NCBI GenBank assembly: GCA_003488415.1
Contig: DNLQ01000130.1
Span: forward strand, 1 to 35,376
Length of the DNA: 35,376 nucleotides
Direction of reading: 5' to 3'
Origin: Ruminococcus sp.
GTDB taxonomy: Bacteria > Bacillota > Clostridia > Oscillospirales > Ruminococcaceae
Shown: one piece after another, positions 9 to 35,376 of the stretch
Position numbering within the stretch: the first letter of the stretch is position 1
Layout: each line of letters begins with the position of its first letter
The notes under the pieces: model-generated
The model's database searches: none
Told to the model about the DNA's origin: nothing
The model's input: only the letters and a program-made list of their open reading frames with translations
Program-made: the position numbers and the translations under genes

Positions 9-251
9 TTATTCAGTAATAACAACATTCTCGAACTTCTTGTAAGCGTCGAGATACCATTCCTTCTTGTCGCCGTTGTATGTCAGCTCATAGTACATAC
101 CGTCGCACAGCGTACTGGAGATAAGATACTTCCAGTTCTGCAAGGCTTTGCACTTCCAGACCATATAGACATCAAAAGGCGGAACAGTATCCGTCTTGTC
201 GAGATGTGCAAATATATAATCTCTGACTATCTGTAAGGCTTTCTCGTCCAT
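9..251 (-). CDS. DUF6275-like phage protein
   Basis: Motif VWKCKALQNWKYLIS...DGMYYELTYNGDKKEWYLDAYKK; strong RBS (AAGGAGGTGAGGAG) before ATG at 251. Confidence 0.7.
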   Translation of the reverse strand: MDEKALQIVRDYIFAHLDKTDTVPPFDVYMVWKCKALQNWKYLISSTLCDGMYYELTYNGDKKEWYLDAYKKFENVVITE

Positions 252-274
252 TCTCCTCACCTCCTTCAAATGGA

Positions 275-307
275 CATAAGAAAACCGCTCTCAGTGAGGG
301 CGGTTTT
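275..307 (-). terminator. Intrinsic terminator ending the portal-toxin cassette
   Basis: Hairpin AAAACCGCCCTCA/TGAGAGCGGTTTT followed by CTTATG; 29/30 identical to 34101-34130. Confidence 0.75.
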
Positions 308-643: not shown

Positions 644-805
644 TTATTCTTCTACGATTTCAAAGCATTCAGGTGGAAAAAGATAATCTTCGTCAAGCTC
701 AGTCATTATCCTATACCAGCCTTTTTCAACCGAAATAACTTCATATATTTTGTCTTTTTCAAAAGCTGTATCTAAATACTGTTTACCTATATATTTGACT
801 TTCAT
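644..805 (-). CDS. 53-aa putative immunity protein for the portal-fused domain (missed by ORF track)
   Basis: MKVKYIGKQYLDTAFEKDKIYEVISVEKGWYRIMTELDEDYLFPPECFEIVEE; ATGA overlap with the portal stop; paralog at 2805-2921. Confidence 0.75.
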   Translation of the reverse strand: MKVKYIGKQYLDTAFEKDKIYEVISVEKGWYRIMTELDEDYLFPPECFEIVEE

Positions 806-2469
806 TCCAACCACCTCTTTATGAAAAAATCGTGTTTTCCTATACCTTCACACTGTGCCCAGTGTAATTCAGCTTTTCGCCCTTCACCGTAATAATCTAC
901 AGTTCCTGTGCCTTTAGCGTGTTGCCAATCTTTGGCTTTACCGCCGTATTTTTTAGCATATTTATCAGCTTTTCGGAACTCAGATTTAACGCCCTTTCCA
1001 GCAAAGACCTCAACATCTTGCAAACTGGTCCTTTCAACAAGGTTAAAATGTTCACCCGTTTCCAAATCCATAATGTCATAGTTTTTAGCCTTTGCTCCAA
1101 GTGACTTTCCGACCTCAATATCCTCTAATTTTATTATATCAGTTTTTTTGGATTTGTCAACCTTTTTCGTCGCTCTTCCTCCGCCTACGCTTCTGCTCCC
1201 CTGCATCTTTCCGTCAGGACCTTGGATATATTGGCGGTACCTCAGCTCTGTAAGTGCCCGTTCCTCACCGGTAACAAGGTTCTTTGTCTGTCCGGTATTG
1301 GGGGTATAGACCTCCATAGTAACAGGATCAAGGAGAACATCAGCAAGACCGAGGGTGATATAGTTGAAGCCGAGAGGCTCATAGTCCTCTTCCCGGCGGA
1401 TCTCATCCACCTGCAGGATGTTGTTCCGCTTGGCTATCTCATAAGCCTGCATACGTTCAAGAAGACTGCCGCGTGTCAGTTCCTTGGTATCAAACGCCCA
1501 GTAATACCCCTGCTCCTTCTCGGATTCAAGCAGGAGAACGTTGTCCAGCTCTGTCTCGATCTGATTCAGGAGCGATATGACCGCCGAAATGAACTTCTTG
1601 TTGTCGTCATCGGATGCTCCGCCGTCAATGACCGTATGAGGGAAGCCGAACAGCTTGCAGATCTCGATGCTGTTGGTCTTCTTATTCTCGTTCATCTGGA
1701 GCTCCGCAGCCGTTGAGGATATCGCCTCGAAGTCAACACCGTCATTCAGCACGATTATCTTGTCACGCTTCTGCTCGTTGTCATAGACCTTCTGGTAACC
1801 TTCCCTGATCGCTGCTATCGCCGCATCCGAGAGCCTGTTCTTCGCTTTCAGGAAGCCCGGCTTGCAGCCGCCGTTGGAGTTCATCATGTTCTCCAGCTTC
1901 AGAGCGTTCCACGCTGCCGAAAGTACCGAGGATGCCTCCTCCTGCAACGGGATGTTCGTGTAGCCGTCCCGCGTCTTCCTCAGCAGCTTGATAAACTGGA
2001 AATCATAATAGTTCTGCGCGTTTATCTGCACTCTGAATGCCTTGAATATCGGATCATTGTTGCACATGATGCTCACGTTCCGGCTGTCCACATAGTGCAG
2101 GCTCCGGACACTCAGACCGTCGCTGTTGACGTATATCCATGCTCCGCGCCCGAGGTAGTAGTCCTCCACCGCTGCTTTCCACATGTCAACAGTGCTGAGA
2201 GTGTCGCCGGTGCTGCCGTTGAGCAGCTTCAGCCGGTCATCGTCGGATATCTCCGTGACCTGCTCTTCATCCTTCCTGTAAAGCTTCACCGGCAGCCGCG
2301 ATATGGTCTCCCCTATCTTGCCGATGCAGGCTGATACCGTCGGTATGCTCAGCGCAGCCTCCCGCGTAAGTTCTCCGGTCAGTCCGAAGAACGTCAGTAT
2401 GGTGTTTTCGCCGTTCTGAGCTGTATCCGCCCTTATTTCCTGCCGCTTTTTTCGTCTGAAAAGTCCTAT
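802..2469 (-). CDS. HK97-family portal protein with C-terminal toxin-like extension
   Basis: Portal motifs (ALSIPTVSACIGKIGETISRLP, EICKLFGFP, DEIRREEDYEPL); ~150-aa extra C-terminus after ELR; start inferred at ATA 2469 after RBS AAAGGAG. Confidence 0.9.
   Translation of the reverse strand: MGLFRRKKRQEIRADTAQNGENTILTFFGLTGELTREAALSIPTVSACIGKIGETISRLPVKLYRKDEEQVTEISDDDRLKLLNGSTGDTLSTVDMWKAAVEDYYLGRGAWIYVNSDGLSVRSLHYVDSRNVSIMCNNDPIFKAFRVQINAQNYYDFQFIKLLRKTRDGYTNIPLQEEASSVLSAAWNALKLENMMNSNGGCKPGFLKAKNRLSDAAIAAIREGYQKVYDNEQKRDKIIVLNDGVDFEAISSTAAELQMNENKKTNSIEICKLFGFPHTVIDGGASDDDNKKFISAVISLLNQIETELDNVLLLESEKEQGYYWAFDTKELTRGSLLERMQAYEIAKRNNILQVDEIRREEDYEPLGFNYITLGLADVLLDPVTMEVYTPNTGQTKNLVTGEERALTELRYRQYIQGPDGKMQGSRSVGGGRATKKVDKSKKTDIIKLEDIEVGKSLGAKAKNYDIMDLETGEHFNLVERTSLQDVEVFAGKGVKSEFRKADKYAKKYGGKAKDWQHAKGTGTVDYYGEGRKAELHWAQCEGIGKHDFFIKRWLE
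1133..1160 (-). promoter_or_regulatory. Intragenic sigma-A promoter in portal linker
   Basis: TTGACA-16nt-TATAAT with extended TG, in codons VDKSKKTDII. Confidence 0.75.
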
Positions 2470-2496
2470 TTTGACCACTCCTTTCGTGGTTTGGAT

Positions 2497-2546
2497 ATAA
2501 AAACAGCACTTGCAGCCGACATTGGTGCCGGTCACAAATGCTTTCA
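2497..2546 (-). terminator. Terminator-like hairpin upstream of portal
   Basis: AAAGCATTTGTG-ACCGGCA-CCAA-TGTCGG-CTGCAAGTGCTG then TTTTTAT; related to 33987-34038 and 35352-35376. Confidence 0.5.
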
Positions 2547-2582
2547 AGCGTTGTTTACTTCACTTCGCGTTTTAATATAGGC

Positions 2583-2612
2583 ATAAGAAAACCGCCTGAT
2601 CTCTCAGACGGT
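2583..2612 (-). terminator. Intrinsic terminator ending cassette downstream of TerL
   Basis: ACCGTCTGAGAGATCAGGCGGT-TTTCTTAT. Confidence 0.7.
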
Positions 2613-2714
2613 CTTATCTTTTTTCTTTTCTTCCTCAAGTCTTTTGATCATTTCAGCAAGTCTCTCAGAGCCTTCCTTATTTGATCCGTCAAGAACTACA
2701 TTCATTTCTTCCAT
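2604..2714 (-). CDS. 36-aa small protein, putative orphan immunity
   Basis: MEEMNVVLDGSNKEGSERLAEMIKRLEEEKKKDKTV with RBS AAAGGTGG; overlaps the end of a start-less frame (...GGLFEWKK*). Confidence 0.45.
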   Translation of the reverse strand: MEEMNVVLDGSNKEGSERLAEMIKRLEEEKKKDKTV

Positions 2715-2804
2715 TCAAAAAGCCCACCTTTCTGCTGATTATCAAGGAATTTATTTACTACCGTTCGGTATTCGTTATCACGATATTCACCTTTTTTAGT
2801 TGCT

Positions 2805-2921
2805 TTAAGCACCTTTGTCGTCTTTGATTCTGTACCAACCTTTTTCGACAGAAATGACATCATATATCTTTCCGTTTGTCAGAACAAGAAAACTTGTTTT
2901 ACCAGTGTACTTAACTTTCAT
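2805..2921 (-). pseudogene. Truncated paralog of the 644-805 immunity protein
   Basis: MKVKYTGKTSFLVLTNGKIYDVISVEKGWYRIKDDKGA*; RBS GGAGG; lacks the C-terminal EDYLFPP segment. Confidence 0.65.
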
Positions 2922-2941: not shown

Positions 2942-3190
2942 TTAATACCACATAACAAGTCTTTCTTCGGGAATTTCTTTCCTCTTGCCGCTTTTTAGCT
3001 CATCAAGGGTCCTTATAAGCCCGTTTGCAGCCATTCTGCCATACATTGAACCGAATTCTTTGATACTCTCGGCAGTATAATCCCTTGTTTTTATATCAAG
3101 CGTTATATGTGCTGACTTATCACTATTTTCAGGGATATAATCAGCTTCGATTGTTTTTAGTCCTATCGCTATGTTTATTAATCTCAGCAT
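2942..3190 (-). CDS. Putative immunity protein for 3141-3776
   Basis: 82-aa ORF MLRLINIA... overlapping the upstream gene end, RBS AGGGAG. Confidence 0.6.
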   Translation of the reverse strand: MLRLINIAIGLKTIEADYIPENSDKSAHITLDIKTRDYTAESIKEFGSMYGRMAANGLIRTLDELKSGKRKEIPEERLVMWY

Positions 3191-3776
3191 AATACTCCCT
3201 ACTTTCTTTAGCATAATTAAACTTTTTCTCAGATATACTATGAGCTTTTATCTGAGATAAGCCCTTCTTCATCAAATCGCTTTCCATTTTTTCGTGATGA
3301 AGCAGTGTAATATCGTGCTTCTGGATGTTTTTACCCTCAATAAGCCTTTGCCATGATTGAGCCATAGCATAATTGGGATAAAAACGCTCTGGGACGTCTC
3401 CGCCCAAATCATGTTCTTCTATGAATACATGATTCTTTATTTGCAAAATGTCGCTTTCACTAAAGCCGGTATTATTTGAGATGTTTTTTACATCTGTTTT
3501 CATTTTACGAACAGACTCATAGTATTGCTCAGCATGAGCCTGTGCTTCTTTGCTGGCAGGAGATAATGCACCACTCACCGCTCCTGATTTTATTATACCA
3601 CTTTTCGCAGATTTGTCAATACTCTTGCCTGCTCCGCCGGAAGAACTGCCTTCTTCACCAATCAGTATATGCCTTCCGTTTTTTGTTATCCAGCCGCGTA
3701 ATTCATACCAGTGTGTCTCGATGTCTATCACTCTGACCGCATGTTCCGCGTAGTCCATGAACCAATTATTATCCAT
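3141..3776 (-). CDS. Stand-alone toxin-like cargo protein 2 (shared leader + HExxE...H domain)
   Basis: ATG 3776 with RBS GAGGTGG overlapping the TerL stop; leader shared with 5687-6322; C-terminal MAQSWQRL...HDITLLHHEKME...AH resembles C-terminal domains of phage head-associated toxins. Confidence 0.7.
   Translation of the reverse strand: MDNNWFMDYAEHAVRVIDIETHWYELRGWITKNGRHILIGEEGSSSGGAGKSIDKSAKSGIIKSGAVSGALSPASKEAQAHAEQYYESVRKMKTDVKNISNNTGFSESDILQIKNHVFIEEHDLGGDVPERFYPNYAMAQSWQRLIEGKNIQKHDITLLHHEKMESDLMKKGLSQIKAHSISEKKFNYAKESREYYAEINKHSDRTKNNRS
3592..3619 (-). promoter_or_regulatory. Intragenic sigma-A promoter
   Basis: TTGACA-16nt-TATAAT with extended TG, in codons IDKSAKSGII. Confidence 0.75.
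3657..3765. repeat. ~110-bp direct repeat, copy A (cargo leader)
   Basis: Near-identical to ~6201-6308. Confidence 0.85.
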
Positions 3777-5674: not shown

Positions 5675-5703
5675 ATTATATCACATTTATTCTGATTTGT
5701 CAA
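5675..5703 (-). promoter_or_regulatory. Consensus sigma-A promoter at the end of the PBECR gene
   Basis: TTGACA-17nt-TATAAT with extended TG, overlapping codons VDKSE*. Confidence 0.8.
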
Positions 5704-6322
5704 CTTTTTTATACACAGGAACGTTATTGCGTAAACGTTGAGCAAATCTTTTCTCGTTCTCACCAATTGCAGTTAGTATAGAATTCTTATAGCTTGGGTT
5801 TTCCCCTTCAACTACGAGCCTAAGAACTAAGTTTACTGTTTTTCCCTTATGGCTATATGATTTAGACACAATAGCTGTATTGTCCATATCATCTTTGAAT
5901 ATATAGTCGGGTGCTTCTATTATTTCAGGAAAATAGCCTTTAAAATCGTCATAAAACTTCTGACCTCTTCGCTCAATAATGTGTTCGATCCGATTATCTG
6001 TTATGATCACCTCGTCGGTGAGAATTCTTCCATTTGCAATAGTTTCAAACTTTTCAACATCTATCTTTCCAACTTTATGCACATCAGTTCCCGCCGTTTC
6101 TCCTGTCTTTTCTTCAATTATACCACTTTCCCCGGCTTTGTCAACCTTTTTGGCAGCTTTTCTGCCTGCTCCGCTGGTGGAGCTGCCACCCTCATCATCG
6201 CCAATCAGGATATGCCTTCCGTTTTTTGTTATCCAGCCTCTGAGCTCATACCAGCGTGTCTCGATGTCTATCACTCTGACCGCATGTTCCGCGTAATCTA
6301 TGAACCAGTCTTTATTCATCAT
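5687..6322 (-). CDS. Stand-alone cargo protein 1 with PBECR2-like (BECR-fold) ribonuclease domain
   Basis: TDEVIITDNRIEHIIERR...IIEAPDYIFKD...NTA...LVLRL...YKNSILT pattern of PBECR2; shared leader; overlaps TerS stop. Confidence 0.75.
   Translation of the reverse strand: MMNKDWFIDYAEHAVRVIDIETRWYELRGWITKNGRHILIGDDEGGSSTSGAGRKAAKKVDKAGESGIIEEKTGETAGTDVHKVGKIDVEKFETIANGRILTDEVIITDNRIEHIIERRGQKFYDDFKGYFPEIIEAPDYIFKDDMDNTAIVSKSYSHKGKTVNLVLRLVVEGENPSYKNSILTAIGENEKRFAQRLRNNVPVYKKVDKSE
6117..6144 (-). promoter_or_regulatory. Intragenic sigma-A promoter
   Basis: TTGACA-16nt-TATAAT with extended TG, in codons VDKAGESGII. Confidence 0.75.
6201..6308. repeat. ~110-bp direct repeat, copy B (cargo leader)
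   Basis: Near-identical to ~3657-3765. Confidence 0.85.
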
Positions 6323-6764
6323 CGCTCAGCACCTTCAGCAGCGGATTCTCTTCCTTCGCCTGCAAGTTGAGGTTGCCCATTTTCGCCCTGCTCTGAGGAC
6401 TCAGGCACAGCTCATTGCAGCAGCGGAAGAAGGACTTCGTATATCTGTCCTTCGATTGCAGCAGCTTGTCATTGCTGAGCTGCACCGGATCCTGATTGAT
6501 CCTGCTCTCTATCTCCTGCATCCTGTCAAGCGCGATGCAGCACTCGGTCAGCACATAGATGTCCAGATTGCCAAGGATGCCGCTGCCCTCCAGTTCCCGG
6601 ACGATGAACTTGAAGATCTTCTTCTGCGCAGTCGTCAGATACTTAGGCGGACGCAGCCTGTCTGCCCTGCCTCTGAGCAGTTCTTCGGTCGAGGACTTTG
6701 CCTCAGCCTCCGCCTTCGTAAGGTGCTTTGACGTAGTTTTCGCACTCATTGCCGGTCTCGCCAC
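6312..6764 (-). CDS. terS: Terminase small subunit, P27 family
   Basis: PPKYLT...LGNLD...ELCLSPQSRAK; GTG 6764 after AAAGGACGTGA. Confidence 0.9.
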   Translation of the reverse strand: MARPAMSAKTTSKHLTKAEAEAKSSTEELLRGRADRLRPPKYLTTAQKKIFKFIVRELEGSGILGNLDIYVLTECCIALDRMQEIESRINQDPVQLSNDKLLQSKDRYTKSFFRCCNELCLSPQSRAKMGNLNLQAKEENPLLKVLSDDE

Positions 6765-30257: not shown

Positions 30258-30528
30258 TCTTTCCGAACCTCCTCAGTGCCTCACGGTCTGGCTCCGTCTG
30301 CTGATAGTAATATGCGTTCTCCAGATATTCCCTGCCCGCCTCGCTCCTGCTGCATCCCCAGACCACTGCGTCATGAAGGTAGCCGAAGTATTCAAACAGG
30401 TCCAGTTCCTCCACCTCACGGAAGCTGAGTCTCGTGTAATCTGATACAAGCTTCTCATCACCGGTGGGATTCTTGAAATACGCCTTATCCTCTCCGTCTC
30501 CGGGATAATAAGGCGTTATGAGTTTGGG
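30247..30528 (-). CDS. Tail assembly chaperone C-terminal part (gpGT-like, via -1 frameshift)
   Basis: C CCA AAC slippery site at 30522-30528; -1 frame open to TAA 30247, encoding ...GREYLENAYYYQQTEPDREALR. Confidence 0.8.
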   Translation of the reverse strand, partial: PKLITPYYPGDGEDKAYFKNPTGDEKLVSDYTRLSFREVEELDLFEYFGYLHDAVVWGCSRSEAGREYLENAYYYQQTEPDREALRRFGKNGR

Positions 30529-30785
30529 TCAGCGCTCCGCTCGGTATTTATCCAGGAATTCAGTCCGCGCATGAACCTGCTCAGGTCATCAACAGTGAAA
30601 TTGTCGATGACATATTCCTCAGTCACAGCAATACCCTCATCATTGGCAGTGCATATCTCTGCCACTGCACGGAAGAGCTGTGCATCGTTCTTTGCCGTGA
30701 GCAGCCCCTTGTAGTACTGTCTCAGTGTAGGCGGCTTGATATTCAGAACCGTTCCGTTGTCAAGTGTGAATCTGTATCTTCTCAT
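30516..30785 (-). CDS. Tail assembly chaperone (gpG-like)
   Basis: Between major tail gene and TMP; ends DPNS at slippery site. Confidence 0.8.
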   Translation of the reverse strand: MRRYRFTLDNGTVLNIKPPTLRQYYKGLLTAKNDAQLFRAVAEICTANDEGIAVTEEYVIDNFTVDDLSRFMRGLNSWINTERSADPNS

Positions 30786-32807: not shown

Positions 32808-33962
32808 TTATGATGCCTTGATCTTGAGCACAGCAAGCTTCTGCTCATCTGTTACCTTTGAATCGAACTCGAACCACGCATCAATGCCGATAGCATGCTG
32901 AGTGTGGTATGCTTCCCTGAGTACCTCGATACCGATATCCTCACGGAAGTTCACGGAGAGTCCGCTGTAGTCACCGTAGAGGACAGCAAGCTTGTTGCCG
33001 CCGATCTCGTCCATATTATCAGAGAGATGCACAGGCTTTCCGAGAAGTCTGAAGGGGAATTCCGCTGTAACATCAGGCTGGATAAGAGGTCTGTTGTCGC
33101 CGTCTTTGAGCTGTTTGAGTGCAGTGAAAGTATTGGATGTCATTGTCCAGCAGGAGTTTTTCTGATACTTCTGCTTTACAGCAGCCTGAAGTGCGATAAG
33201 ATCATCCAAACCGATAGCAAGCGCAGTGCCGGTAGTCACCACATTGCTTGTCTTGGTAGCGCCCTGAGCTGCGGAAGAACCTGAGCCCTTGAGCAGCTCC
33301 TGTTCAAGGAACTGTGCCACTTTCTCAGCGATCTTGTTGATGACGAAATTTGTCACATTGATCGCTGAACTGTTTATAACGCTCTTTCCGATAAGAACGA
33401 GAGCACCTGCAAGGTATCCGCCCAGATCCACCGATGTGAACTTGCCGCTGTCAGCTGTGAGCGGAGTGAACTCAGTTGCATAGGCTACAGTCACATCGTG
33501 GGTGCTGTTCGCCTTTGTCCACTTGGGGATCTTGAGCGTGCCTTTTTCGTGGTACACCTCAGCTCCTGCGAGAATGGGACACATATCAACTGCTGCATCG
33601 ATGATACGCTTGGCGATAGTCGTAGGCACTGTTGATGCACCGTTAGTCCAGTCGATGTTCTGTTCGCCTGCTCTCATCTCGGTGATCTTGCCGCCTATGA
33701 AGTCAGCGAAAGCTCTCTCCTCGATCTGCTCCTGTGTGAGCTGTTCAGCCTTGGGAGCTGCCTGAGGTGCAGGGAGATCAGCTATCCCCTTCGCTCTCTC
33801 CTCCGCCTTGATAGTAGCATCAAGCTGCCTGATCTCAGCCTCTGTCTCGTCAAACTTCTTTGCCTCCTCTTCTGTAAAGGCTCTGTTTTCGGTCTTTACA
33901 GCTTCCAGCATGGAATTGAGAAGGACTACAAGTCCGGCTCTTCTTTCGATAAGTTTCTTCAT
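32808..33962 (-). CDS. Major capsid protein, HK97 family with delta domain
   Basis: N-terminal coiled coil, VPTTIA..II, LKDGDNRP, LLGKPV..SDNM, YGDYS; RBS AAGGAGG. Confidence 0.95.
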   Translation of the reverse strand: MKKLIERRAGLVVLLNSMLEAVKTENRAFTEEEAKKFDETEAEIRQLDATIKAEERAKGIADLPAPQAAPKAEQLTQEQIEERAFADFIGGKITEMRAGEQNIDWTNGASTVPTTIAKRIIDAAVDMCPILAGAEVYHEKGTLKIPKWTKANSTHDVTVAYATEFTPLTADSGKFTSVDLGGYLAGALVLIGKSVINSSAINVTNFVINKIAEKVAQFLEQELLKGSGSSAAQGATKTSNVVTTGTALAIGLDDLIALQAAVKQKYQKNSCWTMTSNTFTALKQLKDGDNRPLIQPDVTAEFPFRLLGKPVHLSDNMDEIGGNKLAVLYGDYSGLSVNFREDIGIEVLREAYHTQHAIGIDAWFEFDSKVTDEQKLAVLKIKAS

Positions 33963-33986
33963 GGATTTTTCCTCCTTTAAATGGGT

Positions 33987-34038
33987 ATAAAAATAGCACC
34001 TGCGAGGGACATTTGTGTCCTTAGCAAATGCTTTTTTG
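33987..34038 (-). terminator. Terminator-like hairpin upstream of capsid gene
   Basis: AAAAAGCATTTGC-TAA-GGACA-CAAA-TGTCC-CTC-GCAGGTGCTATTTTTAT. Confidence 0.55.
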
Positions 34039-34100
34039 CGTTTTATGAGCGTATCATAAGCATGAGATACGCATTTTATGAGCGTTTTGCGTATTTTAGG

Positions 34101-34130
34101 CATAAGAAAACCGCTCTCAATGAGGGCGGT
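34101..34130 (-). terminator. Intrinsic terminator ending protease cassette
   Basis: ACCGCCCTCATTGAGAGCGGT-TTTCTTATG. Confidence 0.75.
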
Positions 34131-34137
34131 AACTCGA

Positions 34138-34335
34138 TTATTCTGCTCTTTCCCTTAAAAAAGGCTCTTCATAAGCAGCTATATCACTTGTAGTTGCATC
34201 TGGATGATCTTTTAAGTAGTTGATTATATATTCTGCATATCCCTCATATGTTTCGGCTGCTCGAAATACCCAACGTTCAAAGTCTTCATATGTATCAGGA
34301 ACAGATTTTATAAGCATTTTAAACTCATCATTCAT
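34138..34335 (-). CDS. Putative immunity protein
   Basis: 65 aa, acidic (VPDTYEDF...IINYLKDHPDATTSDI); RBS AAGGGGTGA; follows toxin-like domain. Confidence 0.65.
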   Translation of the reverse strand: MNDEFKMLIKSVPDTYEDFERWVFRAAETYEGYAEYIINYLKDHPDATTSDIAAYEEPFLRERAE

Positions 34336-34346
34336 ATAATCACCCC

Positions 34347-34748
34347 TTAATCATTTTTCCATTTTGAAAAAATGTTATAATCGTTATATCCACGTATTTC
34401 AAATTTATAGGTATATTTTGACGTACTGTGAAAGCCTATACTCTTGCCTTTATACTTAGATTCATAGTTATCATCGATTTGCCTTATAACAGTGCCATAT
34501 TCTTTCTTAGGTAAATGTAATTCAGGATAGGTATATGGTTTTCCATCGAAATCATTCTTGATTTCTTCTTTACCATATTGTACACCATCATCTGATGATT
34601 TGTCAACACTTTTCTTCGTGCTCCCGCCACCTCCGGTATCCGGATCGTGATGATAGAGCTTTCGACTTCCGCCGCCTATACTCCTGCTGCCATTCATTTT
34701 ACCATTCGGCAGCTGAATGTACTGGCGATACCGGAGCTCAATTGCCCT
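34347..34748 (-). CDS. Toxin-like C-terminal extension in frame with protease, behind TGA
   Basis: Frame continues RAIELRYRQYIQLPNGKMNGSRSIGGG..., matching the portal linker; no clear RBS for ATG 34697. Confidence 0.65.
   Translation of the reverse strand, partial: RAIELRYRQYIQLPNGKMNGSRSIGGGSRKLYHHDPDTGGGGSTKKSVDKSSDDGVQYGKEEIKNDFDGKPYTYPELHLPKKEYGTVIRQIDDNYESKYKGKSIGFHSTSKYTYKFEIRGYNDYNIFSKWKND
34577..34606 (-). promoter_or_regulatory. Intragenic sigma-A promoter
   Basis: TTGACA-18nt-TACAAT in codons VDKSSDDGVQY. Confidence 0.55.
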
Positions 34749-35330
34749 TCACTCGAATTCCAGCATTTTCAGCCTGTTCTCATAATCGCTGTAGTCCGGC
34801 TTGTTCTCGATGACAAGCACAGGCTCGATATCGAGGGAACGCAGCTCCATGTCGATGTCACCGCCTGCACGGCACTCCACCGATGTCGCAGCGTAGCACG
34901 GTATCTTGTCCTTGATGAGGGACACATGATCCAGTTCCAGGCTCTTGACGTGTCTGATCGGCAGCTCGTCCTCACCGCGGCTCTCGATTTCGTCCTGTAC
35001 GTTGAACATACCGAAGGACCAGCCTCTCAGTTTGCCCTTGCGTGCCATTTCGATGACTGTTTCATCTGTGATGAGCACATCGGCGTGAAGTCCGATAGCG
35101 TCCTCACGGAGAACGAGAGAACCGTCACGGGTATTTGCATAGGCGTGCCCCTGATCGTGATCGAGTGTCACCGTGATGTCGCCGTTCTTCTTGATAGCCT
35201 CGCTGAAAGCTCTCTCCTCGATAGTTTCAAGGACTTTGCCTCTGGGTGTTATCACCGGTCTGCTCAGCTTGCCGGTGACGTTGACGTAGCCGCTTATATG
35301 CAGTCCGTCAGCTCTGACTTCGATTTTCAT
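34749..35330 (-). CDS. HK97-family prohead protease
   Basis: ISGYVN...E.I...AF, LDH, L.L.ED.IGL, GWSFG, VSL...PCY..TS. Confidence 0.92.
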   Translation of the reverse strand: MKIEVRADGLHISGYVNVTGKLSRPVITPRGKVLETIEERAFSEAIKKNGDITVTLDHDQGHAYANTRDGSLVLREDAIGLHADVLITDETVIEMARKGKLRGWSFGMFNVQDEIESRGEDELPIRHVKSLELDHVSLIKDKIPCYAATSVECRAGGDIDMELRSLDIEPVLVIENKPDYSDYENRLKMLEFE

Positions 35331-35376
35331 TCTTTCACATCCTTTCAGGGAATAAAAATAGCACTTGCCGCCGACA

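Follow-up and report, generated by a model that had tools for sequence, protein, structure and literature searches.

Phages are known to carry effector domains on proteins of the head. In the MuF polymorphic toxins of temperate Firmicutes phages, as far as the searched text of the two papers goes, a head-assembly protein is the carrier of variable C-terminal toxins, immunity genes lie downstream, and delivery from the capsid together with the DNA has been proposed (Jamet et al., 2017, PMC5576092; Zhang et al., 2012, PMC3482391). Polyvalent proteins are a related case, with PBECR RNases, 2H and InPase domains fused to portals and predicted, in the searched text, to be packaged and injected (Iyer et al., 2017, PMC5512222). 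Here we analyzed contig DNLQ01000130.1 of a Ruminococcus sp. assembly (GCA_003488415.1), 35,376 nucleotides that are referred to below as the window. Near one end of it, on the minus strand, the gene of an S78 prohead protease ends in a TGA codon behind which the same frame stays open for a further 133 codons, encoding a linker plus a C-terminal domain (CT) that varies. With a probability of about 0.5, we propose that this UGA is leaky and yields a minority protease-effector fusion destined for encapsidation.

Compared with the MuF toxins, the carriers at this locus are different, namely the portal and the S78 prohead protease, and no MuF domain (PF04233, PF06152 or related) was found among the Pfam matches of the 22 head and tail open reading frames (ORFs) scanned in the window. 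The word “prohead” does not occur in the searched text of PMC5576092 or PMC3482391, which likewise describes neither an in-frame stop nor an embedded promoter; “stop codon” is absent from the searched text of PMC5576092, where proteases are mentioned as an example of low-toxicity MuF toxins. As with the polyvalent proteins, the window contains an ORF with a PBECR2 domain (6322..5687). Yet the cassettes described here are short, single-domain and paired with a partner gene, and they are bounded by a promoter and a terminator-like hairpin, while “prohead” appears only in the reference list within the searched text of PMC5512222.

Two further parallels concern the route into the virion. In phage Q-beta a structural gene also ends in UGA, followed by a long in-frame extension without a start codon, and the extended product, A1, is a minor virion component. 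Weiner and Weber reportedly described A1 in 1973 as a readthrough protein made across the leaky UGA that ends the coat gene. The difference is that Q-beta is an RNA phage of E. coli with an extended coat protein, whereas here the presumed readthrough would extend a protease that is normally removed from the head. In the internal proteins of phage T4 and the encapsidation system of HK97, a targeting part brings proteins into the procapsid, where the prohead protease processes them before they are ejected along with the DNA; for the present phage such a route is a proposal from sequence, and a cleavage site in its linker is a guess. We found no prior account of protease-borne toxins, of prohead-protease readthrough or of the NPYHD motif described below, subscription journals aside. 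Compared with the literature searched, in which polymorphic toxins on MuF and portal-fused effectors are known, the distinguishing features here are the S78 protease as a carrier, the conserved in-frame UGA and the promoter within the linker codons.

The protease was assigned by a Peptidase_S78 (PF04586) match of ORF 35330..34749 (E-value (E) 3e-24, 86.5 bits against a cut-off of 21) and by phrog_80 (head maturation protease); a match to TIGR01543 was weak and under the cut-off. Residues H58 and S105 (the latter in GWSFG), putatively catalytic by analogy with HK97, are invariant across 23 aligned sequences. A weak match of the NCBIfam protease Prp to residues 171-207 (E 0.039) was taken as noise. 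Every gene at this window end lies on the minus strand, on which the junction reads ...CTG GAA TTC GAG TGA AGG GCA ATT GAG CTC CGG..., with the TGA at 34751..34749, 133 in-frame sense codons past it and a closing TAA at 34349..34347. This codon readout agrees exactly with an earlier note on this DNA, which had drawn attention to the in-frame TGA and the open codons behind it. A frame open for 133 codons arose in only 6 of 200,000 shuffles of the same bases. In the protease alignment, the TGA occupies the variable residue of a conserved junction, [YF]-E-x-R-[AL]-x-ELR-Y, and therefore the “FE” or “YE” just before the stop already belongs to the cassette. The ATG at 34697 was also said in the earlier note to lack a ribosome-binding site (RBS), and by eye no GGAGG-like stretch is present in the 20 bases preceding it, unlike upstream of the protease, capsid and partner genes.

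We retrieved 17 loci with the protease, nearly all of them Ruminococcus prophages or contigs of metagenome-assembled genomes (MAGs), and 14 of these have a readable protease end (L015 reaches its contig end, L016 diverges past residue 78, and L010, treated below, was excluded too). Two of the 14, L003 and L005, repeat the layout of the window, with protease, in-frame TGA-AGG, linker, CT, small ORF and capsid gene in this order. In the other 12 the protease is followed directly by the capsid gene, the stop codons are TAA in six and TGA in six, and no cassette or cassette remnant was found after the protease. The L003 junction reads ..GAT TAC GAG TGA AGG GCA ATT GAA CTT CGC.. (TGA at 6580-6582) and that of L005 ..GAC GAG GGG TGA AGG CAA TTC CTG GAA CTG CGC.. 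(TGA at 2090-2092). Inspection of homologs at 34749-34751, which the earlier note had called for, hence revealed the same TGA junction in two independent assemblies. Only G-TGA-AGG-(G)CAATT is common to the three junctions. The stop retains its identity, position and frame in all three cassette-bearing loci, and in each it is followed by a long ORF that has no start of its own (133 open codons in the window, 174 in L003 and 155 in L005); the window has no ATG with an RBS, and in L003 and L005 an in-frame ATG, GTG or TTG is lacking until halfway through the CT. Between the three loci the proteases share 76-84% of their residues, and the synonymous divergence (dS) of the genes is 1.10 or not computable (saturated). 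Because loci with a saturated protease dS share it, the TGA is neither a private recent change nor an assembly slip.

Several candidates from these loci were set aside. A 307-aa “fusion” in L010 (6001..6924) was not counted as a cassette: past residue 184 its protease enters a tape-measure-like sequence, GIIAEAGPELLEVMNGGVRITPL, with the capsid and tail genes skipped, so that the join is probably a large deletion or a chimeric (mis-assembled) MAG contig. A pair of -1/+4 indels in L005 was dropped as a sign of selection on the frame, being explained equally well by a one-codon insertion. A 17-base block around the TGA is identical between the window and L003, which at a background of about 85% identity would occur by chance in about 6% of cases and is weak. 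In a phage collection, neither tblastn with the 133 amino acids (aa) nor blastn with 33900..35376 gave a match, and the read-through protein found only distant proteases (<60% identity), none covering at least 80% of the query and none extending past the protease part.

Uninterrupted fusions were found at greater distance. The protease read through its stop (TGA as W) was scored against 1.84 billion representatives and gave 1,874 matches. Among the best 150 of these, 70 are at least 250 aa long and 48 are uninterrupted protease-cassette fusions (GWSFG plus an ELRYNPYHDPxNGRF-type motif at residues 157-280); 24 fused proteases were inspected and 16 aligned. Two fused proteases of 320 aa (P0017 and P0036) bear the CT family of the window, and another, P0054, carries a Tox-PL1/Gln_amidase domain (34.5 bits against a Pfam cut-off of 24.1). 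The 120 nearest protease clusters (identity of 60-87% across the scored part, residues 120-260 of the read-through query), on the other hand, include neither a fusion nor any protein longer than 218 aa. Seven of the 120 end exactly at the TGA position, five in ..LE[FY]E and two in ..KLDEG. Since uninterrupted fusions exist in distant representatives, the protease C-terminus is, on sequence evidence, a genuine cassette attachment site that in this clade is interrupted by a retained UGA.

The linker past the TGA is a variant of the ELRYNPYHDPxNGRF motif of the fused proteases and is homologous to the C-terminal linkers of portals P0004-P0006 and of the L013 portal. In P0004-P0006 the shared part includes RKLYHHDPDTGGGG, and the homology begins at “RA” immediately past the TGA. 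When the 133 aa were compared with longer proteins, six matches were obtained, all of them portals (PF04860) of 531-580 aa that matched in their C-terminal tail. As all longer homologs are portals matching in the tail, the 133 codons are, judged by homology, a portal-type C-terminal module consisting of a linker and a CT. The portal of the window itself has a related linker, but its CT is unlike the post-protease one. Within the linkers, ELRYRQYIQLPNGKMNGSRSIGGG (34739..34668) and its counterpart in the portal ORF (1248..1177) are identical in 20 of 24 residues, and this portal copy is the only other six-frame match in the window at 9 or more of 24 residues. Of the 24 codon pairs, 6 are identical, 14 differ synonymously and 4 non-synonymously, so the peptide match and the 14 synonymous codon differences quoted in the earlier note proved exact on recount. 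At the nucleotide level the two copies agree at 50 of 72 bases, with 7 as their longest identical stretch. Over 51 codons, a comparison with the L013 portal linker gave 15 synonymous changes and 9 non-synonymous ones. Selection on the linker peptide, which had been deduced from the codon differences, is borne out by them; it does not prove translation behind the protease, because the selection may have acted in portal genes of other phages.

The post-protease CT of the window is 77-79% identical to the tails of portals P0002 and P0003 and of portal fragment P0043, and 27-38% identical to those of fused proteases P0017, P0036 and P0033. Equivalent relations hold for the other two TGA loci: the CT of L005 and its 56-aa ORF match the window’s portal CT and ORF 814..644, and the CT of L003 with its Cys-rich 63-aa ORF matches the L002 portal CT and the next ORF. 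In L006 and L016 the portals bear the window’s post-protease CT family again, accompanied by the 65-aa ORF family. Portal, fused protease and the position behind the TGA thus share CT families, three of which are accompanied in two or three loci by a small downstream ORF of their own. The carriers, in turn, exchange their tails, as portals of 73-82% identity (whole-protein alignment) bear unrelated tails, and seven related loci have seven portal tails of at least five kinds. Two hallmarks of polymorphic toxins (Zhang et al., 2012) are therefore present, that is, a conserved carrier with exchanged variable C-terminal domains and a cognate downstream gene, here a putative immunity gene, that co-varies with the CT.

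An AlphaFold2 (AF2) model of the CT was confident, with a predicted local distance difference test score (pLDDT) of 90 and a predicted template modeling score (pTM) of 0.78. No significant Pfam match was obtained at E up to 1 (the best, DUF3970 at 0.019, is under the cut-off), and no NCBIfam or PADLOC family matched. A Foldseek search gave no significant fold match (best E 0.032 in PDB and 0.0095 in BFVD), and the ESM Atlas contained no usable one. For the portal CT family A, the AF2 model (pLDDT 68.8, three sequences) and the searches of PDB folds (best E 0.45) and PDB profiles (best E 0.071) were uninformative. Sibling cassettes do end in known domains, PBECR2 in the window and Tox-PL1/Gln_amidase in P0054. 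Fragments of portal C-termini with the post-protease CT family (P0282, P0283, P0043 and P0281; 176-208 aa) were also seen as separate ORFs starting from an internal Met, P0282 on 14 contigs of up to 129,739 bases; these perhaps represent portal genes that were split or truncated in remnants of prophages.

The 65-aa ORF behind the CT has homologs that follow the same CT family in L006 and L016. Complex prediction for the CT and the 65-aa protein gave a score of 0.83, compared with 0.00 for the best control. Among solved complexes, 116 of 157 attain the mark applied to this score, as do 2 of 215 mismatched pairs; these counts hold only roughly here, our own small alignments having been used for the prediction. 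The runs agreed in at least 93% of contacts and the partner had a pLDDT of at least 89. The predicted interface supports binding of the CT to its partner.

A conserved peptide of the linkers was examined by scanning the window’s minus strand and the 17 loci’s plus strand, each in three frames, for the pattern [VIL]-D-[KN]-[STA], two to five residues, [GDAS]-x-I. The pattern occurred in 20 places, 18 of them in Gly-rich linkers; the other two are not linkers and lack the promoter pattern. All 18 linker instances are written as NTTGACAAN-N16-TATAAT (16) or -TAAAAT (2). The first residue of the motif may be V, I or L, yet its codon always ends in TT, and Asp is always encoded by GAC. Because the same promoter-forming codons are used in all 18 linkers, the conserved peptide, KK[VIL]DK[ST]xxx[GDA]II, looks like a near-consensus sigma-70-like promoter written into the reading frame; a promoter lying within linker codons would account for the DNA-level conservation of so short a peptide motif. 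In the window the motif is found at 34606..34577, 1160..1133, 6144..6117, 3619..3592 and 5703..5675 (minus strand), and it is also present in the linkers of L001-L013. The embedded promoter probably drives the downstream partner gene when the late operon is silent. At the other side, each cassette ends in a terminator-like hairpin followed by UUUUCUUAUG. The hairpin at 34130..34101 recurs exactly at 304..275 over 30 bases, one Y position aside, and a variant lies at about 2615..2568 (minus strand); further hairpins are at L010 5892-5905 and L016 582-595. Folding energies were -11.5 and -12.9 kcal/mol (z-scores -2.9 and -3.9). Promoter, partner and terminator had been called intact, and all three are indeed present as sequence features (an 11/12 promoter, the 65-aa ORF and the hairpin). 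The 133 codons thus appear to belong to a complete mobile cassette comprising junction motif, Gly-rich linker with promoter, CT, binding partner and terminator-like hairpin.

Post-protease CTs show purifying selection, with no speed-up in two of three families. All three cassettes are intact and none has decayed. Between post-protease and portal-borne CTs, the ratio of non-synonymous to synonymous rates (dN/dS) was 0.13 (152 codons, dS 1.56) and 0.16 (159 codons, dS 1.12). In two families, distances to an outgroup were nearly the same for the post-protease and the portal copies, at 75/110 vs. 74/110 and 51/83 vs. 51/83. These values exclude long-term decay of the post-protease CTs, and they are compatible with recent transfer from an expressed site.

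How would such a cassette be expressed? The C-terminus of the portal faces the capsid interior. Duda et al. are said to have reported in 2013 that the HK97 protease bears encapsidation determinants. An HK97-type protease is described as enclosed in Prohead I in the searched text of PMC10275583. We favor readthrough of the UGA because both carriers end inside the head and because uninterrupted fusions occur elsewhere. UGA is the leakiest stop codon according to the searched text of PMC7026636. Most ribosomes would stop at the UGA and produce the plain protease, while a small share would read it through by near-cognate decoding and produce protease-linker-CT. Co-assembled into the procapsid interior, the rare fusion would bring a few CT copies into the head, from which the CT could be set free and transferred together with the DNA. 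Transcription from the embedded promoter in the lysogen would be confined to the partner gene and keep the host immune. Readthrough, its level, encapsidation, delivery and the action of the CT are steps that we infer. A leaky UGA giving a minority fusion was one of two options named in the earlier note; it fits the shared TGA, the distant fusions and the missing CT start in L003 and L005, but no stimulator of readthrough was found. Somewhat more tentatively, the UGA may be viewed as a dosage valve by which the protease smuggles an exchangeable effector in a few copies into each head, and the cassettes as self-contained plug-ins, four per phage, whose promoter peptide would serve antidote expression in lysogens.

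A number of observations weigh against translation across the stop. There are three TGA loci only, and the likeness of their junctions suggests a single unit passed on by inheritance or transfer, so that frame and stop identity do not count as three separate events. Even in the absence of selection, the frame would be preserved by recombination within the linker. Polymorphic toxin systems keep untranslated orphan cassettes, and the embedded promoter gives the cassette a use, immunity, that does not depend on translation of the CT. The CT of the window has no recognizable toxin fold, and in the third family the outgroup distance shows a small excess in the post-protease copy (48/126 vs. 41/124). 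Neither a stimulatory context nor a downstream structure was detected: an Rfam search of 33900..35376 gave nothing within E 1 and no selenocysteine insertion sequence (SECIS), and no conserved RNA structure was found past the stop in the three loci (z-scores of -3.45 in the window, -0.55 in L003 and -0.24 in L005). C is the base named as a leaky context after the stop in the searched text of PMC7026636; here, the base past the TGA (+4) is A.

The most serious competing explanation, to which we attach a lower probability than to readthrough, is that the linker and CT behind the protease are never translated, while the partner gene, transcribed from the promoter in the linker, gives the lysogen immunity. 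An old nonsense change or a recombination junction would have cut an ancestral protease-CT fusion, and the cassette would persist as protection against relatives bearing that CT and as a store from which the CT can be recombined into an expressed site. Start-less orphan modules are typical of contact-dependent inhibition (CDI) and Rhs systems, where displaced toxin ends with part of the upstream region and no start codon are accompanied by a working immunity gene. The CT here is similarly devoid of a start codon with an RBS, and the partner has a promoter-like site upstream, its own RBS and a terminator-like hairpin behind it. CTs do move between portal and post-protease sites, and P0284 joins the window’s post-protease linker to CT family B, which points to swapping at the VDKS/promoter point. 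No readthrough signal was found in the Rfam and fold analyses. The general theme of orphan modules is found in the searched text of PMC3482391.

Other properties of the locus fit a silent store less well. A CDI or Rhs orphan is placed directly downstream of an expressed pair with recombinable identity, whereas this cassette lies behind another gene, itself a proven carrier, and in frame with it across one stop. If the contig is circular, three small ORFs and the protease gene separate the portal cassette from the post-protease one. The window’s two linkers, identical at 50 of 72 bases and in runs of at most 7, have diverged too far to lend themselves readily to the homologous exchange for which an orphan store would be kept. 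The three cassettes are intact, the low dN/dS values given above were obtained across the sites, and rate acceleration is absent in two of three families, with the small excess in the third. The site is not an arbitrary place, being the fusion site in 48 of the best 150 distant representatives, and all three cassette-bearing stops are TGA as against six TAA and six TGA in the cassette-less relatives. The earlier note’s other option, a recently silenced toxin, loses ground as a private recent mutation, the TGA being shared; an older, inherited silent cassette stays a serious rival to readthrough.

Translation of the CT on its own, by internal initiation at ATG 34697 or by re-initiation past the TGA, would release a free linker-CT protein. 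We consider this improbable. An in-frame ATG does lie 17 codons past the TGA, gene callers predict a 116-aa ORF there (P0009), P0279 and P0284 start at the linker Met, and two other cassettes of this phage are free-standing genes with their own starts. Against this, ATG 34697 has no RBS, L003 and L005 offer no in-frame start until the middle of the CT, and the N-terminal leader of about 40 aa of the free-standing cassettes is absent from the post-protease ones. A recent nonsense mutation or assembly error private to the contig is less probable again and essentially excluded: one base change suffices to turn a sense codon into TGA and distant relatives have uninterrupted fusions, but the same TGA stands at the same motif position in two independent assemblies whose proteases are only 82-84% identical in protein and saturated in dS, seven further protease clusters end there, and none of the 120 close relatives is fused. 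Decoding of TGA as an amino acid throughout, by an alternative code, a phage suppressor tRNA or selenocysteine, although some gut phages recode stop codons, is refuted by stop-codon usage, as TGA is the commonest stop in the window (closing 26 of 45 non-overlapping ORFs with 80 aa or more, including terminase, portal and tape measure), the only tRNA in the window is a tRNA-Met with no suppressor tRNA present, and neither a SECIS nor a conserved hairpin past the stop was found.

If the UGA is read through, the locus would be a DNA-phage counterpart of the Q-beta A1 strategy, loading cargo into the capsid. The prohead protease would then join MuF and the portal as a vehicle for phage-delivered effectors, and the route and copy number of effectors entering the head would become testable by one codon change. 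Regardless of readthrough, fusions of S78 proteases with effectors are common, as seen from the 48 cases among the best 150 representatives. The fixed architecture of junction motif, in-linker promoter, CT, partner and terminator makes a compact, portable module. Having no known fold, the CT families are candidate sources of new activities of rumen Ruminococcus phages against the host or competitors. Coordinates of the features are collected in Table 1.

Table 1. Features of the protease and portal cassettes and of the adjoining genes in the window.
Feature	Position	Strand	Basis or remark
Prohead (capsid maturation) serine protease gene	34749..35330	-	193 codons + TGA; PF04586, phrog_80
In-frame TGA, AGG next	34749..34751	-	At variable x of junction motif [YF]-E-x-R-[AL]-x-ELR
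Linker / pre-effector region (RAIELRYRQYIQLPNGKMNGS..GGG..RKLYHHDPDTGGGG..KKS)	34608..34748	-	Without own start codon and RBS
Promoter-like site TTGACA-18-TACAAT (11/12)	34577..34606	-	Inside codons for VDKSSDDGVQY
Variable C-terminal domain (CT), 86 aa, no known family	34350..34607	-	Portal-tail homology
65-aa partner (putative immunity) gene	34138..34335	-	Own RBS, AAGGGGTG before ATG
Terminator-like hairpin + UUUUCUU closing the cassette	34101..34130	-	Repeated behind portal cassette
Major capsid protein gene, next late gene past the cassette	32808..33962	-	PF05065, E 1e-44
Portal gene with fused cassette	802..2547	-	PF04860, E 9e-44 on residues 69-388
Portal cassette parts	Linker 1248..1177, promoter motif 1160..1133, CT 1161..805, 56-aa partner 814..644	-	

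Two more cassettes, free-standing and with their own starts, lie behind terS and terL (6322..5687 and about 3773..3141, minus strand). Both have a conserved leader of about 40 aa, M..WF.DYAEHAVRVIDIET.WYELRGWITKNGRHILIG, followed by a Gly-rich linker with the promoter motif. The first ends in the PBECR2 nuclease domain (E 1.2e-8); the second belongs to no family, and small ORFs 3214..2942 and 2863..2702 follow it. One phage thus appears, from its gene order, to carry four cassettes behind four consecutive head genes, terS, terL, portal and protease.

The window is the whole contig, and its gene order is sensible only if the sequence is circular or permuted. Across the join, the order would be portal cassette, a DUF6275 ORF (269..9) and the protease starting at 35330. 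No terminal direct repeat of 10-399 bases was found at the window ends. An 18-base element, AGTGCTATTTTTATWCCC, is present at 2510..2493, 34000..33983 and 35365..35348 (minus strand), three matches vs. 0.05 expected, some 15-20 bases ahead of the RBS of the portal, capsid and protease genes. Cassette-less relatives have it in front of these genes too, visible there as spurious “VLFLYP..” ORF starts, and it may be a late-gene regulatory or processing element. For the protease copy, reading across the join gives a plausible continuation (..ACA|TGTCGGCGGCAAGTGCT; the portal copy has CCAATGTCGGCTGCAAGTGCT).

Further along the minus strand, small ORFs 30785..30516 and 30461..30273 are found just upstream of the tape-measure gene, the usual site of tail assembly chaperones. 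ORF 30461..30273 is in frame with the tape-measure gene across a TGA, an arrangement expected by chance in one third of gene pairs.

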